Below are positions 9,131 through 64,000 of a stretch of DNA of 64,000 bases, piece by piece. Numbering within the stretch: the stretch's first letter is position 1; each line of letters begins with the position of its first letter. The stretch lies in UHGV virus genome UHGV-1375844; one strand, 5' to 3'. Origin of the DNA: a virus. Position numbers and translations under genes: made by a program. The notes under the pieces are model-generated. The model had not been told where the DNA came from, made no database searches, and saw only the letters and a program-made list of their open reading frames with translations.

Positions 9131-9272
9131 TATGCGATATAGCCTAAATGCCTACGGCTGCGGTGTAAAGGTGAAATGGTAGGTATTATCGAGATAGAGA
9201 GGGTCTTGAGATTAAGAATGAGAAGAGGTAAACAACTTTTGGCGAGAAGGCGGCACATAGCCGCCAGACTGT

Positions 9273-51819: not shown

Positions 51820-52038
51820 TCACTTCGTTTCTGACGTTGTGCAGTTCCACGCGACGGACATTGGGCTGTCCTCGATATGGAAATCAAACGTCCCTTCTCT
51901 GTACCCTTCAGAGATAAGCGTCGCTACGCGAGTAGTGACATCCTGGGAACGGATAACGTCATCGAGGGAGATCTGGAGTTCGTCAGTGCATGTCTCTTCT
52001 CCGCAAAGGGTGATGCTGATATTAAGATGCTTGTACAT
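51820..52038 (-). CDS. hypothetical protein (72 aa)
   Basis: ORF with motif B upstream. Confidence 0.45.
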   Translation of the reverse strand: MYKHLNISITLCGEETCTDELQISLDDVIRSQDVTTRVATLISEGYREGTFDFHIEDSPMSVAWNCTTSETK

Positions 52039-52426: not shown

Positions 52427-52604
52427 ACGTCCTCGGCAATTTCGCCACCAAAACCCTTAACCCTTTACACTAGCTCTGGCTTCCCGACATGAGCGTGCGA
52501 AGCTAGTCTGGTCTCAACACTCAATTGCGGGACTCACAAGTTCCCGCAATATTCAGGTTAACGAGAAGCAAGACACACTCCCGCAGCGCTCCCTCGCTCT
52601 TTAC

Positions 52605-52750
52605 CGGGATGCATCCGTTTCCTGACCTGAAGCCAGCCTTTTCCCGGTTCGCATGACGGGATTCTCCCCGTTTCCCTGAAAAACCCAGCCGTTTCCCTGC
52701 GGCGATGCTCCCGTTTTCCAGTAGGGATGCAGCCTTTTCTCTGGATGGCC
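52605..52750. repeat. iteron-like direct repeats (GCCGTTTCCC family), about 6 copies
   Basis: CATCCGTTTCC, CAGCCTTTTCCC, CCCCGTTTCCC, CAGCCGTTTCCC, CCCGTTTTCC, CAGCCTTTTCTC at about 22-28 bp spacing. Confidence 0.6.
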
Positions 52751-52979
52751 CGCAGGTTGACCGTAGGGGTGGGGAGGGACGTTACGGGAGATAAAATCAT
52801 GGCTTGAATAAATACGGGAAAAGTAGCGATCCCCCTCTTCCCCTTCCCACTTATACCTCCAGTTAAATCTCTGCGTTCCTCTCTCCTTTAATCGAATCTG
52901 TCTTCCCTCCGATAAGGCTCAATACGATGACTACCTCTGTACGTGAAATGGGTGGTTCGTACTCTCTGCCGGCATATGT

Positions 52980-53470
52980 CTTTTTGCGCTTCTTGAGGCT
53001 GTTCTTCTATGCGTTTTCTTCTGGGTTGTTTTCGTCTCTTTGGGTGTTCTTCTTCTCTGGGTATTGAGTAATGGCAGGTGTGCTTTCCTCTTCGTTTACT
53101 TGCTGAGAAGGAAGTGTGGGGAATGGCAGTAGGGCGCTTTAGTTGTTCTCTGCATATCAAGTAATAGCGTTCCCTGCTTTTCAGGACTTTGCGCTCTCTT
53201 CAGGGGTAATGGTGGGTAAGTAAGATTGCAACGGCTCCTGTTCTGGTCTGGGTTTGCCCGGGGTTGCATTCTGAGCGCTGTTCTCTGTGTTTTGGGTAAT
53301 GGCATGTAGAGGATTGCGTGCGCGAGCTGCGTCTCGGTTGCCTGGTGGCATTAGGTGGGTGGTCGGTAGCCTGGGGTCAAGAGGTGGGTCTATTCCATAG
53401 CCTGGTGGTAAGAGGTGGGTAGTTTCCGGGGGTTGTGGGCAATGGCGCCTCTGGGTTTCCCGCGGGTGGG
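52980..53470. repeat. degenerate tandem direct repeats in ORF-free region
   Basis: Recurring TTCTCTGGGT...GGTAATGGC units (period roughly 75-80 bp) and 3 copies of TAGCCTGG.GGT.AAGAGGTGGGT; a fourth copy of the latter lies at about 49871. Confidence 0.55.
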
Positions 53471-53510
53471 ATTAATTTGTTTTCTTGCTGTAGAAAACAA
53501 CTTGTTTAAA
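53471..53510. promoter_or_regulatory. motif B copies in both orientations
   Basis: ATTAATTTGTTTTCTTGC and GAAAACAACTTGTTTAAA. Confidence 0.4.
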
Positions 53511-53706
53511 TGGGCAATTTAACGCAATCAGAGCGCTTTTGAGCGTGTCTGTTTTTGGGTGGTGTGTTGAGTCGTTAGAGATGCTTTCGTCGCGAGGTGA
53601 TTGATTCTGGTGGGCAGGATAGCGGGTATAAGAGATGGCATGTGAAAACGTCAACTTTTTAGACTAAATCGGGAGAATGCATTGACATTTCTTTGATGTG
53701 TTATTT

Positions 53707-53731
53707 ATTTGTTTTCTCATATGCGTAATTA
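53707..53731. promoter_or_regulatory. motif B-like copy
   Basis: ATTTGTTTTCTCATATGCGTAATTA (compare 9112..9130). Confidence 0.35.
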
Positions 53732-54075
53732 ACTGAAAGCCCTTGTCACGCCTGGTCTGGTGTAGGTTGGGAGAGTGGAGAAAGTGGCGATCAACGGACT
53801 CTTATAGAAATCCTCATTTTGTGACCGCCAATGTCAACGATTTGACTAAATCAGATGGTCGAGTTCATCGTTGATTTGCTCTCTCAGGGAGGAATCGTTT
53901 ACACCCCACGCGTCAATCCTTTGCCTCAACTCTGGACTGAATTGCATATAGATGCTGTGGATGATTTGTGGGGTAGGGGTTAAACCTCTCATCGCAATGC
54001 ACTGGTACAGGTATGACTTTTCACTGAACACTGTTAAATGCCCTCATTTGATTGAAAAGTGCATTTTAACCTTAG

Positions 54076-54393
54076 TCACCAGTCCCATGAGGTAAGTCCG
54101 TCCACCAGCTCGGCATCACGGTCGAAATGTACCGAATCGAAGCCAGCATCGAGTACTGCCTGAATATTCGTTATCGTCTCTTCGGAGATATTGTAGGCAC
54201 GCAGTTCTTCCTTCCAGTCATTCCCCCGTAATCCGGCCCGGACAATCCATCCGTACTTGCTACCGTGTACCCAATTCAGCCCGCGGTCTGTGATTGGGTC
54301 GAAACTTACGACAGGCAGACGTTCAGAGTCTTCGCCCGTTACGTGAGCGGTGCTGATCACCGCCGTCTTATAGGACTCGGTGATTTTCAGCAT
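54076..54393 (-). CDS. hypothetical protein (105 aa)
   Basis: ORF coupled to the upstream gene. Confidence 0.5.
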   Translation of the reverse strand: MLKITESYKTAVISTAHVTGEDSERLPVVSFDPITDRGLNWVHGSKYGWIVRAGLRGNDWKEELRAYNISEETITNIQAVLDAGFDSVHFDRDAELVDGLTSWDW

Positions 54394-63007: not shown

Positions 63008-63027
63008 ATAGGTAAATACTTACTTAT
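63008..63027. promoter_or_regulatory. motif A palindrome copy
   Basis: ATAGGTAAATACTTACTTAT spanning the RNase H stop codon. Confidence 0.45.
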
Positions 63028-63628
63028 CATTTTGTGACAAAAAACCAATGTCACGCTTGTGAGGCATATCCGCTGCGGTGTGAGCCGCGATCTTCGCCAG
63101 ACGGTCACACATTTCGTTTTCGCGATGACCCGCATGGCCTTTAACCCACTTCCAGCGAACGTTGTGGCGGCTGGCGGCCGCGTCGAGACGTTTCCAGAGA
63201 TCGACGTTTTTGACTGGCTTCTTCTCGGACGTGATCCATCCGTTACGCTTCCAGCCTTTCATCCAGAGCGTCATGCCGTTTTTGAGATACTGGCTGTCTG
63301 AATGCAGGATCACGTTGCAGGAGTACTTCAGACGCTCCAGCGCAATCAGGGCGCCCATCATCTCCATACGATTGTTGGTCGTACTGTGGAAGCCCTCAGA
63401 AAGTTCACGCTCTTCGCCTCGATACTGGAGAACGATGCCGTAACCGCCCGGCCCGCCCGGATTTTTGAGGCAAGAGCCATCACTGAACACTTTTACGGTT
63501 TTGAGCTGGGGATTGAACTCGACTACGGGGGTTTTGAAGCTGGTACGGGAATGGTGGTGGGTTTGCTGTCTGGCTTTGGACTTCGGCCGGCAGCCAGTTT
63601 GTTGTCGGGCTGGGGTTTTAGTTGTCAT
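63020..63628 (-). CDS. rnhA: ribonuclease HI with basic ~40-aa N-terminal extension
   Basis: Catalytic core closely matches E. coli RnhA by eye ([56 protein letters not shown]); ATG at 63628 has GGAG RBS; longer ORF to 63685 starts on GTG. Confidence 0.8.
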
Positions 63629-63670
63629 TTTGACTCCAGAATCGCGCGCCGCGACGATTTTTTTTTCCCT

Positions 63671-63692
63671 CGCGCGTGTGCGCACGCGTGTG
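63671..63692. other. alternating purine-pyrimidine (CG/TG) tract
   Basis: CGCGCGTGTGCGCACGCGTGTG followed by A/T-rich region and small inverted repeats. Confidence 0.5.
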
Positions 63693-64000
63693 TTTAAATT
63701 TTAAAAATTTTTATGAAAGAAAAACTTACTTCCCAGAACAGGTTTTAATAAAACCTGAACTGAACGAACGAAGTGAGTGAAGTTCACCTCGAACGAAGTG
63801 AGAGGTTGTCTTTTCAGGTAATATCTTCCCAGGGAGGTGAGTACAGATCCTCACCAGCCTGGTCGTTACATAACCTGAAAAGTTATGGCCTAAGTCTACT
63901 GCCAGCTTAGGCTTGGGAAGTTATGGATGACAGCACCCCAGAACCGAGATCTTCCCACATTCTATGAAGGGGAGCTGGGAACACAACCTCTCGAAATCCC

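Follow-up and report, generated by a model that had tools for sequence, protein, structure and literature searches.

SSU5-type phage-plasmids appear to harbor, on the minus strand upstream of rnhA, a discrete RNA gene of about 450 nt that belongs to no known RNA family; from sequence comparison we place this reading at roughly 55%. The 3′ portion (about 283 nt, 63%) occupies positions 63715-64000 of the window, the 64,000-nt stretch of viral DNA analyzed here, and the 5′ end falls near window-equivalent position 64166 (position 9266 of plasmid L001), so that the gene is cut by the window edge. The 5′ 37%, outside the window, was read from L001, which is 99.4% identical. The first-pass annotation had noted a structured, ORF-free non-coding region truncated by this edge, and conservation and covariation far beyond chance across the whole block bear it out. 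Together, these comparisons establish constraint at the RNA level, the strand and independence from rnhA.

The window derives from an SSU5-like phage-plasmid, with 99.4% identity to Salmonella plasmid pSA20094620.2 and 93.5% to phage SSU5. The locus was earlier suspected to lie at a genome end, and its rightward extension was proposed as a check; in L001 the remainder of the RNA gene is followed by an ordinary same-strand gene continuation, comprising a 76-aa gene, a Dam methylase and nucleotide-metabolism genes. Pfam and PHROGs give no function for the 76-aa protein, and PADLOC finds no defence-system match for RnhA and its neighbors.

The 588-bp intergenic block is 85-91% conserved in 687 PLSDB plasmids carried by Klebsiella, Escherichia, Enterobacter, Salmonella, Citrobacter and Cronobacter, and the RNA is unannotated throughout this set. 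Identity in the RNA core reaches 88-93%, vs. 47-63% at the third-codon positions of the adjacent rnhA. Variable columns of the RNA gene are spread evenly over the three phases (63/60/54, p = 0.70), with no codon periodicity, and ORFs within 63676-63910 are only 34-45 aa long and not conserved, which agrees with the earlier statement that no clear ORF lies upstream of rnhA. The RNA is present in 232 of 5,426 complete E. coli genomes (4.3%), and RefSeq annotation of it is absent from all 233 matching E. coli records. Neither the Salmonella nor the Cronobacter version matches a family among the 4,227 models of Rfam 15 (including ROOL, GOLLD, HEARO, RNase P, tmRNA, introns and riboswitches); a permissive search returns only spurious miRNA-hairpin matches (E 0.07-9.5, far under the gathering scores), the whole window yields nothing at Rfam gathering thresholds, and ARAGORN detects no tRNA or tmRNA. 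A literature search found no RNA described at this locus; a 2023 catalogue of phage-RNA candidates (PMC10690425) was not compared at sequence level. Motif scans of IMG/VR, GTDB genomes and metagenomes recover nothing beyond SSU5-like elements and a single Cronobacter-like sister lineage. The GTDB matches number about 80 and are nearly all non-homologous by nhmmer, presumably chance matches to a 16-base pattern; the real ones are two Kluyvera contigs and one Buttiauxella contig.

The consensus fold contains 96 pairs, and 99.1% of pair cells are paired (36-53% in controls) across lineages that are only about 58-67% identical. Changes on both sides affect 21 of the 96 pairs, vs. 1-3 when partners are slid, none of 500 shuffles reaches the observed values, and the fold z-score is -5.0. 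Independent covariation events are few, because most of the covariation reflects a single deep split between the main and the Cronobacter-like lineage; some compensatory changes do occur within the main lineage (pairs 86-146, 163-225 and 275-295). The many invariant G-U pairs assign the RNA to the minus strand: helices common to both strands contain 74 A-C cells, equivalent to G-U on the minus strand, vs. 17 G-T cells. The minimum free energy is -176.5 kcal/mol for the minus strand vs. -148.8 kcal/mol for the plus strand.

Transcribed from its own σ70 promoter, the RNA would form a stable 5′ hairpin, then a core of 15 or more helices that a long-range helix probably closes, and finally a 3′ stem-loop with a U-run. 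Within the window, all on the minus strand, helices 11 and 12 (63914-63957) consist of UGGGAAG ... CUUCCCA around GGGUG-CUGU-CAUCC; they are 100% paired, with 3 compensatory pairs of 7 in helix 11 and 1 of 5 in helix 12. Helix 13 (63888-63912) is a GCCUAAGCUG/AGACUUAGGC hairpin of 10 pairs, 4 of them with two-sided changes and 100% of cells paired. It is followed by helix 14 (63869-63887), a CAUAACU/GGUUAUG hairpin whose 7 pairs include one compensatory and one G-U change, and by helix 15 (63829-63862), a CCAGG-GGUGAGG ... CUCACC-CCUGG stem-loop in which 2 of 11 pairs have two-sided and 3 have one-sided changes, pairing being kept. Helix 16 (63779-63790) is the hairpin GAGG-UGAA-CUUC, which becomes GAGG-GAAA-CCUC in the Cronobacter lineage: a G-U pair is replaced by G-C and the loop UGAA by GAAA. 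RNAalifold places a 3′-terminal composite stem-loop, ACUU-CG-UUC-GU-UCAG ... CUGG-GAA-GU-AAGU, at 63724-63774, directly followed by a U-run (63715-63723) within a conserved U-rich tail.

A near-invariant segment of 23 nt, ACAACCUCUCACUNCGUUCGAGG (63788-63810, minus strand), is the predicted 3′ strand of long-range closing helix 1, with GAUGGGUGGGGG (L001 about 9233-9222, outside the window) as partner; 3 of the 12 pairs have one-sided changes with pairing kept. The global fold is not settled, because mutually exclusive pairings are possible for this segment, its alternative partners being GAGAGGUUG and GAGGUGA. A G-quadruplex in the G-rich tract was considered and dropped, the tracts not being conserved in the sister lineage. 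A 19-mer, CCTCTCACTNCGTTCGAGG, recurs in many unrelated metagenomic contexts, for which no link to the RNA and no Rfam match were found.

The first-pass annotation had drawn attention to an inverted repeat, two duplicated repeats and a 22-bp alternating tract, all of which are present in the sequence. The inverted repeat CAGGTTTTA/TAAAACCTG (63739-63757), with arms that extend to 14 nt, is the apical hairpin of the 3′ stem-loop, and this apical stem covaries between lineages. The direct repeat CGAACGAAGTGAG occurs in two exact copies: copy 1 (63790-63802) lies within the invariant 23-mer and copy 2 (63765-63777) is the 5′ strand of the 3′ composite stem-loop. The copies of AAGTTATGG belong to helix 14 (63880-63888, the first) and to helices 11 and 12 (63918-63926, the second). 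Taken alone, the short repeats are not significant (5 matches with at most 2 mismatches, 1.8 expected). The repeats and hairpins fit the helices of a single folded transcript better than they fit iterons or terminal repeats.

Sequence signals suggest where the transcript begins and ends. The 76-aa gene upstream ends in a terminator hairpin, and right behind this begins the predicted σ70 promoter (TTTAAA/TTTACC, spacer 16-17 nt, extended -10 TGnTAnnAT; L001 9298-9271). The position of the promoter is conserved while the spacer varies, and the scan also calls a promoter with a TG extension in SSU5. The 5′ hairpin begins 6-8 nt past the -10 hexamer and occurs with at least six different stem sequences. 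At the other end, the main lineage has a long, interrupted 3′ stem with an AU-rich base, for which the terminator scan made no call; at the homologous site of the Cronobacter lineage, a canonical minus-strand terminator is called (ACCCAUUCUGGGU and AUUAUUUCAU). This lineage keeps the RNA at 67% identity, and a Tad2-like gene with its own promoter replaces rnhA. The best explanation would treat the RNA as a component of the phage-plasmid in its own right rather than an appendage of rnhA.

The main competitor of a discrete RNA gene, in our judgment rather unlikely, is a giant cis-acting leader or attenuator, in which a core of about 345 nt senses a signal (a protein, a ligand, temperature or how fast transcription proceeds) and a choice between terminator and antiterminator at the 3′ end sets read-through to the downstream cargo gene; genes beyond rnhA or the Tad2-like gene would also be set. 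The RNA lies directly upstream of same-strand protein genes in both lineages, and no σ70-like promoter for rnhA is detected by the scan on the minus strand between the RNA gene and rnhA. Under the favored reading of a discrete RNA gene, too, rnhA probably depends on read-through, given the imperfect main-lineage terminator and the lack of a detectable promoter of its own. The transcript may be simply a long rnhA 5′ leader, because the main-lineage 3′ hairpin is AU-rich at its base and uncalled. The duplicated UCACUUC, GAGGUGA and GGGAAGUAAGU plus the U-run allow 1:2, 2:3 and 3:4 pairings resembling those of classical attenuators, helix 1 would sequester segment 1, and a degenerate second copy is retained in the Cronobacter lineage. 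The alternative pairings lack covariation support, because the sequence involved is invariant. Like trp-type leaders, HK022 put and EAR, the locus combines a promoter-proximal structured RNA, a terminator-like hairpin, downstream genes and possible exclusive pairings. However, it is several times larger than those elements and has no leader peptide. Moreover, the downstream gene differs by lineage; the Cronobacter version is preceded by a promoter of its own, and the RNA there has a canonical terminator. A sensor of about 345 nt would also be unusual: we know of no riboswitch aptamer as large. The earlier suggestion of a regulatory region holds only in part: the DNA is structured, functional and non-coding, and a regulatory role is possible only as such a cis-acting leader.

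The neighboring gene, rnhA (63020-63628, minus strand), encodes 202 aa. It starts at the ATG at 63628-63626, with a Shine-Dalgarno GGAG (63637-63634) located 5 nt upstream and conserved in the alignment, and stops at 63020; RefSeq annotates the same CDS in L001. A GTG at 63685 was rejected as the start, the frame upstream of the A-run differing among relatives. Variable columns by codon position (39/28/134, p = 1e-22) reveal the third-position bias of a coding sequence. The core (about residues 42-185) matches Pfam RNase_H (E 1.2e-45; 155.6 bits, cutoff 25.8; profile positions 3-140 of 141; residues about 44-182) and PHROG 531, "Rnase H" (2.6e-77), as well as PDB chains of RNase HI (E 1e-62 to 1e-64). 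The closeness to enterobacterial RnhA noted at first pass is confirmed: the solved enterobacterial enzyme 4ly7_A is 63% identical over 150 aligned residues, and the HMMER alignment to it shows identical residues at every equivalent of E. coli D10, E48, D70, H124 and D134, in catalytic motifs that include fsDgsc, nnrmEmm and hsDsqy. RnhA shares with E. coli RNase HI (PDB 2rn2/1rch and relatives) the RNase_H fold family, the five active-site residues and the basic handle region (WKRNGW...KKPVKN). It differs in a 41-aa basic N-terminal tail and a C-terminal extension of about 15 aa, both absent from host enzymes, and in being encoded on a plasmid or phage. By sequence, rnhA is thus a true RNase HI gene, otherwise ordinary, whose product would clear RNA from RNA-DNA hybrids (primers, R-loops) for the replication and nucleotide-metabolism gene set of the element.

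The tail, first described as about 40 aa rich in Lys, Arg and His, is indeed present, its 41 residues including 4 Lys, 4 Arg, 3 His and 1 Glu. Its low-complexity coding region (63506-63628, minus strand) is found in 58 of the 58 distinct rnhA sequences collected; both ends are conserved among relatives (start MTTKTP), the basic middle is variable, and the codon-position bias is relaxed (25/30/42). RNase H matches occur in 892 phage records, of which 27 reach at least 80% query coverage, all SSU5-like; in the non-SSU5 phage matches listed, the alignment begins only at about residue 29-48. Judged by these alignments, the tail is specific to SSU5-like elements among the phage records searched. 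No hybrid-binding domain (HBD, Pfam Cauli_VI) is matched in the tail, RNase_H being the sole Pfam domain at E ≤ 0.01, and the literature search found no description of it. This fast-evolving tail is most likely a disordered appendage with nucleic-acid affinity, and would be a minor lineage-specific curiosity.

The proximity of an RNase HI gene raises the possibility, quite improbable in our view, that the RNA is a primer of the ColE1 type for lytic or plasmid replication: it would form a persistent R-loop near its 3′ end, the adjacent RNase HI would cut it and the 3′ OH would prime synthesis, making the locus an origin. A structured RNA of about 450 nt immediately upstream of rnhA, within a replication and nucleotide-metabolism module, does recall the ColE1 RNA II/RNase H pair, which has a structured transcript of about 0.5 kb, and the likeness extends to a G-rich single-stranded tract in the transcript, GGGGUUGGGGAAGGGGG. 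The region between the RNA gene and rnhA adds an A-run followed by a GC hairpin, which we take to resemble the RNA-DNA switch region of ColE1. On the plus strand, this segment (63642-63666) reads as a GC hairpin, TCGCGCGCCGCGA, followed by a T-run, called as terminator-like in both L001 and SSU5; on the minus strand it places the A-run and hairpin in the rnhA 5′ UTR, with a run length that varies among relatives. Several observations argue against a primer. The Cronobacter lineage retains the RNA without rnhA and has GGGGAGAGGGAG in place of the G-tract, which is only partly conserved; conservation is lowest in the GC hairpin region, part of which pHCM2 has lost; and the terminator-like hairpin ends the RNA before the A-run is reached. 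The element encodes DnaE, a DnaB-like helicase and RepA, and no Pol I gene was found on it. Neither an antisense partner nor a promoter like that of antisense RNA I was detected. The idea of a replication origin, raised at first pass, also lacks support from composition: cumulative GC skew changes monotonically across the locus and reaches its extremes at repA, and no DnaA boxes occur within 86-92 kb of the plasmid.

The same interval contains the alternating pyrimidine/purine tract, CGCGCGTGTGCGCACGCGTGTG (22 nt, 63671-63692), upstream of the rnhA ribosome-binding site; an AT-rich spacer of variable sequence (63693-63714) separates it from the RNA 3′ end. The tract includes the palindrome GTGCGCAC and is the only one of its kind in the window (shuffles expect 0.01). 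It is conserved, with slight variation, in the main lineage; pHCM2, L069 and L082 have lost part of it, and it is reduced to CGCGCGAGG in the Cronobacter lineage.

Still less probable is an element acting as DNA, whether a single-stranded priming or packaging signal, an array of protein-binding repeats or a physical genome terminus. Covariation alone cannot separate RNA from single-stranded DNA, in which G-T pairs are tolerated, direct repeats are present and, by inspection, the plus-strand 19-mer forms a cGNAg-type hairpin with tandem G-A pairs. However, the -35, TG and -10 elements are conserved at a fixed distance from the first hairpin, the G-U bias marks the strand that is co-transcribed with the flanking genes, and there are only two short repeat pairs, both accounted for as helix strands. 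A genome end, as once proposed, is contradicted by the location of the locus: it sits at about 79 kb of the 103-kb linear SSU5 record, away from either end, circular plasmids run through it without a break, some 24 kb separate it from the terminase genes, and record ends give no sign of a terminus here. Finally, a decayed gene or neutral spacer with chance hairpins, conserved only by recent kinship, is hardly credible: most sequences do come from closely related plasmids and the short repeats are individually at chance level, but conservation far above that of neighboring synonymous sites, the lack of codon phase and the preserved pairing between lineages all speak against it.

If the discrete RNA gene is expressed, as its predicted promoter suggests, the product would act in trans. 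It most likely works through its fold, by protein binding or as a tertiary or catalytic structure, and not by antisense pairing: against the rest of the rebuilt 106.6-kb plasmid, blastn-short gives only complementary matches of at most 12 nt, which are at chance level. A match of 11 nt between the repeated loop motif and the ribosome-binding region of a 72-aa gene (window 51821-51831) was rejected as weak; it is kept in SSU5 and PhiR41 and lost in a Klebsiella relative whose RNA retains the motif. The immunity RNAs of P1 (c4), P4 (CI) and N15 (CB) are likewise non-coding and located on the same strand upstream of an operon with an antirepressor-type gene, here a Rha family gene 2.2 kb downstream. 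Those RNAs are about 70-100 nt long and act by short antisense pairing, whereas the SSU5-type RNA is about 450 nt long and its best complementarity, 11-12 nt, is not conserved in Klebsiella relatives.

Further parallels are ROOL, GOLLD and HEARO/ω RNA, which also measure several hundred nt, combine many covarying helices with highly conserved unpaired stretches, and occur in temperate phages and plasmids as stand-alone genes of unknown function. Unlike these, the SSU5-type RNA matches nothing in Rfam, is confined to Enterobacteriaceae phage-plasmids and has neither an adjacent tRNA cluster nor an IscB/TnpB-type nuclease; its neighbor RnhA is dispensable in one lineage. An OMEGA/IscB-like guide RNA was also considered and dropped, the neighboring protein being a true RnhA that is missing in one lineage. 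Bacterial RNAs of such size and complexity have mostly proved to be ribozymes or the cores of ribonucleoprotein machines.

We tentatively propose, short of an even chance, that the locus represents an undescribed class of large RNA in SSU5-type phage-plasmids of Enterobacteriaceae, which acts in trans via its fold and either influences the life cycle of the plasmid-prophage or counters host defence. Such a trans-acting RNA might, with the same reserve, serve as a scaffold or decoy for a protein, act as a ribozyme or function as a sensor. A role in the life cycle or in anti-defence is proposed given that the RNA adjoins a variable cargo slot, occupied by rnhA or by the Tad2-like anti-Thoeris gene. 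Phage-plasmids are reported, in at least part of the literature, as carriers of resistance genes. The SSU5 type, to which the S. Typhi plasmid pHCM2 belongs, is widespread among clinical Enterobacteriaceae. An RNA of about 450 nt that is better conserved than the surrounding proteins and named in no database is a rare kind of object, and it could reveal an unrecognized layer of control over plasmid-prophage maintenance, induction or anti-defence.

Over its final 1.1 kb, the window shares 99.4% identity with the Salmonella enterica plasmid pSA20094620.2 and with Enterobacter ludwigii plasmids, 93.5% with Salmonella phage SSU5, and 80-88% with phage-plasmids of Klebsiella and Escherichia; these matches place the window, by sequence, among the SSU5-type phage-plasmids. 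The near-identical plasmid locus L001 was chosen for reading past the window end (window coordinate = L001 coordinate + 54900, a conversion confirmed on the sequence). Here, a gap of 588 bp lies between rnhA, the RNase HI gene, and the gene upstream of it on the minus strand (PHROG 5343, 76 aa, no function assigned). The first-pass annotation had described a structured non-coding region cut by the window edge, and this description holds. Its inverted repeat (63739-63757) is the tip of the 3′ stem of a predicted RNA, and CGAACGAAGTGAG occurs in exact copies at 63790-63802 (copy 1, inside a 23-nt almost invariant stretch) and 63765-63777 (copy 2, the 5′ strand of the 3′ stem). The two exact copies of AAGTTATGG (63880-63888 and 63918-63926) are strands of helices 14 and 11. 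The alternating pyrimidine/purine tract at 63671-63692 is the sole such 22-mer in the 64 kb, with 0.01 expected, and 63676-63910 holds just 34-45-aa unconserved ORFs, as the absence of a clear reading frame had implied. About 560-630 bases past the window end (L001 9661-9727), between a Dam methylase gene and the 76-aa gene, lies an AT-rich, near-perfect palindrome of ~67 nt with an overlapping promoter-like site; it was the source of the only matches in the first Rfam search (spurious, miRNA-like).

The non-coding block is widespread. Used as a query, the 588-bp block matched 687 plasmids, mostly at 85-91% identity and in 682 cases with 80% or more of the block covered; the hosts are Klebsiella, Escherichia, Enterobacter, Salmonella, Citrobacter and Cronobacter. 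One copy is present in 232 of 5,426 complete E. coli genomes, on ~110-kb plasmids where the locus is unannotated. The RNA core is 88-93% identical to the window's version across the relatives compared, whereas their rnhA genes show 78-84% identity overall and 47-63% at third codon positions. By this measure the non-coding DNA is far more constrained than neighbouring silent sites, and its substitutions show no three-base periodicity (63/60/54 by phase, p=0.70). The roughly 85 RNA copies recovered by motif scans divide into two groups, the main lineage and a Cronobacter-like sister lineage, with ~58-67% identity between them; a metagenome scan added two further Cronobacter-like copies. A copy on a Buttiauxella gaviniae ATCC 51604 contig (L106 4793-5164) lacks the 5′ ~150 nt, which comprise the first domain as well as the 5′ hairpin and the promoter; this copy probably survives as a remnant of a decayed prophage-plasmid.

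Comparative folding predicts that the block forms a folded minus-strand transcript. The RNAalifold consensus of 20 representatives contains 96 pairs in 17 helices, with standard pairs in 99.1% of sequence-by-pair cells and 21 pairs in which both bases have changed yet still pair. When partners are shifted by 1-3 columns, pairing drops to 36-53% and two-sided changes to 1-3 pairs, and none of 500 column shuffles reached the observed values. Most double changes trace to one deep split, between the main and Cronobacter-like lineages; some occurred inside the main lineage, where U-A, C-G and U-G are all found at pair 86-146 and variation is also seen at pairs 163-225 and 275-295. Two hairpins lie outside the consensus: the 5′ one forms every time despite six or more different stem sequences, and the apical 3′ one changes in sequence with its stem kept. 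Helices predicted on both strands contain 74 A-C cells (G-U in a minus-strand RNA) vs. 17 G-T, and the minus-strand fold has many invariant G-U pairs. Folding energy is -176.5 kcal/mol for the minus strand and -148.8 for the plus strand (z about -5 each). Long-range complementarity of 18 nt (83%) links window 63800-63817 and 63975-63992 (GAGAGGUUG... with ...CAACCUCUC), both cores being invariant across all lineages; this pairing could represent a pseudoknot, or else offer the invariant 23-mer a different partner. The modelled global fold is provisional.

The boundaries of the unit can be predicted from conserved signals. A conserved hairpin and T-run just past the stop of the 76-aa gene is read as its terminator, and a -35-like TTTAAA, TTTACC or TTCATA overlaps the tail of this putative terminator. 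A spacer of 16-17 nt and variable sequence is followed by TGnTAnnAT, in which T, A, A and T are invariant. In SSU5 the promoter scan called TTTAAA-17-TAAAAT with TG, the sole minus-strand promoter-like site in that stretch; the L001 hexamer, TAATAT, scores one point below threshold. Because the 5′ hairpin begins 6-8 nt past the hexamer, the predicted RNA start falls near L001 9264-9266, equivalent to window ~64165. At the predicted 3′ boundary, a U-run at 63715-63723 directly follows a long stem with interruptions (ACUU-CG-UUC-GU-UCAG ... CUGG-GAA-GU-AAGU), and at the homologous position in the Cronobacter lineage the scan called a compact terminator. By these predicted ends the RNA measures ~450 nt; the 3′ ~283 nt lie inside the window and the remaining 37% was read from the 99.4%-identical plasmid.

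From the RNA towards rnhA, an AT-rich spacer leads into the alternating GC tract and an A-run, and then come a small GC hairpin and the rnhA ribosome-binding site. Conservation is lowest in this interval: pHCM2 and two other relatives have lost part of the tract, and in the Cronobacter lineage it is reduced to CGCGCGAGG plus A-rich sequence. Both GC hairpins resemble terminators on the plus strand, for which a target was looked for and none found. Since the scan detected no sigma-70-like promoter for rnhA between RNA and gene, rnhA is probably expressed by read-through. The RNA is not tied to this gene. In Cronobacter sp. JZ38 and its relatives the RNA, its promoter and the 76-aa gene upstream are all retained, and a 103-aa Tad2-like (anti-Thoeris) protein replaces rnhA (L003 1958-2269, equivalent to window 63020-63628; PF11195, E 2.5e-7, above the curated cutoff), with its own promoter-like site and hairpin just 5′. 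This retention argues that the RNA belongs to the phage-plasmid backbone and that the site following it is a slot for variable cargo, which looks swappable.

The minus-strand RNase H frame (stop at 63020) begins with an ATG at 63628, five bases past GGAG, giving 202 aa as in RefSeq. Public records are inconsistent (202, 215, 222 or 254 aa); the three longer annotations were rejected, as they extend into non-coding DNA in a frame that is not the same in all relatives, owing to an A/T-run of variable length (63658-63666, just 5′ of rnhA, ~5 to 10 bases across relatives). The RnhA-like core noticed at first pass is borne out: Pfam RNase_H matches residues ~44-182 (1e-45), matches to solved structures of enterobacterial RNase HI reach 1e-62 to 1e-64, and the best chain has 63% identity with all five active-site residues identical. 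Variable sites concentrate at third codon positions (39/28/134, p=1e-22), so rnhA is under normal protein-level selection. The basic N-terminal tail is equally real (41 residues: 4 K, 4 R, 3 H, 1 E) and is present in 58/58 distinct versions collected, with conserved ends (MTTKTP... and a 13-residue C-terminal end), a freely variable basic middle and relaxed codon bias (25/30/42). No Pfam domain was found in the tail, the hybrid-binding domain of RNase H1 included. Of 892 phage records with an RNase H match, 27 reach at least 80% query coverage, all SSU5-like; among the matches listed, the non-SSU5 alignments all begin at ~residue 29-48, and the tail is thus unmatched outside the SSU5-like group. 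Apart from its lineage-specific appendage, this new representative of a known enzyme family is ordinary. The enzyme fits the element's own replication set (DnaE, DnaB-like helicase, ligase, flap exonuclease, 3′-5′ exonuclease, NrdAB, ThyA and DHFR).

A stand-alone RNA gene is the favoured reading, because the unit has its own predicted promoter, a protective 5′ hairpin and a predicted terminator, and is retained with different downstream genes; the stable 5′ hairpin would protect the transcript. Among the rivals, a giant leader acting in cis is the strongest. In that model the two copies of UCACUUC, together with GAGGUGA and the 3′ strand of the terminator, could form mutually exclusive 1:2, 2:3 and 3:4 pairings, and helix 1, the predicted long-range closing helix, would shift the balance to read-through into rnhA. 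These alternative pairings are invariant, and covariation speaks neither for nor against them. A ColE1-like primer RNA is attractive with an RNase H gene as neighbour, but is weakened by the rnhA-less lineage that keeps the RNA, the lack of a Pol I gene on the element, the flat GC skew and an A-run/hairpin region that is poorly conserved. An antisense mechanism is unlikely on sequence grounds, since no complementarity above 12 nt was found elsewhere on the plasmid and an 11-nt match to a ribosome-binding region was rejected as not conserved. This match, complementary to the CUCACUUCGUU motif repeated in the RNA, lies in minus-strand mRNA at window 51821-51831, 13-23 nt 5′ of a 72-aa ORF, and overlaps the small gene's ribosome-binding region; it is kept in SSU5 and PhiR41 and absent in a Klebsiella relative. 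The genome end or origin proposed at first pass has no support: rightward extension in L001 gave the rest of the RNA and then the 76-aa gene, cumulative GC skew on the 106.6-kb plasmid, where one strand holds nearly all genes, falls monotonically with extremes at repA and no inflection at the RNA locus (88.7-89.2 kb), no DnaA boxes occur within 3 kb, and the locus sits in the interior of the linear SSU5 record, well away from the terminase genes. Elsewhere, a 1.65-kb stretch without annotated genes in the near-identical plasmid (window ~52428-54079, plasmid record 77432-79083) has reversed local composition relative to the rest of the element (GC skew +0.26, AT skew -0.29 at 78-79 kb). For the stand-alone RNA, action by way of a three-dimensional fold is indicated by its size, by many conserved unpaired stretches and by the long-range helix or pseudoknots that may form around the invariant 23-mer.

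The RNA matches no described family. Against Rfam 15, the Salmonella and Cronobacter versions gave just sub-threshold, miRNA-like hairpin matches on the minus strand, nothing in the whole window reached gathering thresholds, and no tRNA or tmRNA genes were found. RefSeq and GenBank records annotate nothing at the locus except over-extended rnhA calls, and no mention was found in the literature searched; it might be among the more than ten thousand phage RNA candidates catalogued in 2023 (PMC10690425). The 19-mer CCTCTCACTNCGTTCGAGG, part of the RNA stretch at window 63788-63810, recurs in many unrelated metagenomic contexts at no fewer than 120 loci (L180-L299; also L026, L053 and L017), including a soil intergenic family adjoining a GGGCGTACGCCC hairpin, a gut-phage family ~30 nt 5′ of a start codon and, in L258, three tandem units of 78 nt. 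Its flanks often lengthen the stem, the opposite strand would give a cGNAg hairpin with tandem G-A pairs, and these contexts have no Rfam match; the recurrence may be chance or may reflect a shared module. The object of interest at this locus is not RNase HI. It is an unannotated, family-less structured RNA gene, favoured as a stand-alone unit and widespread in clinically common phage-plasmids.
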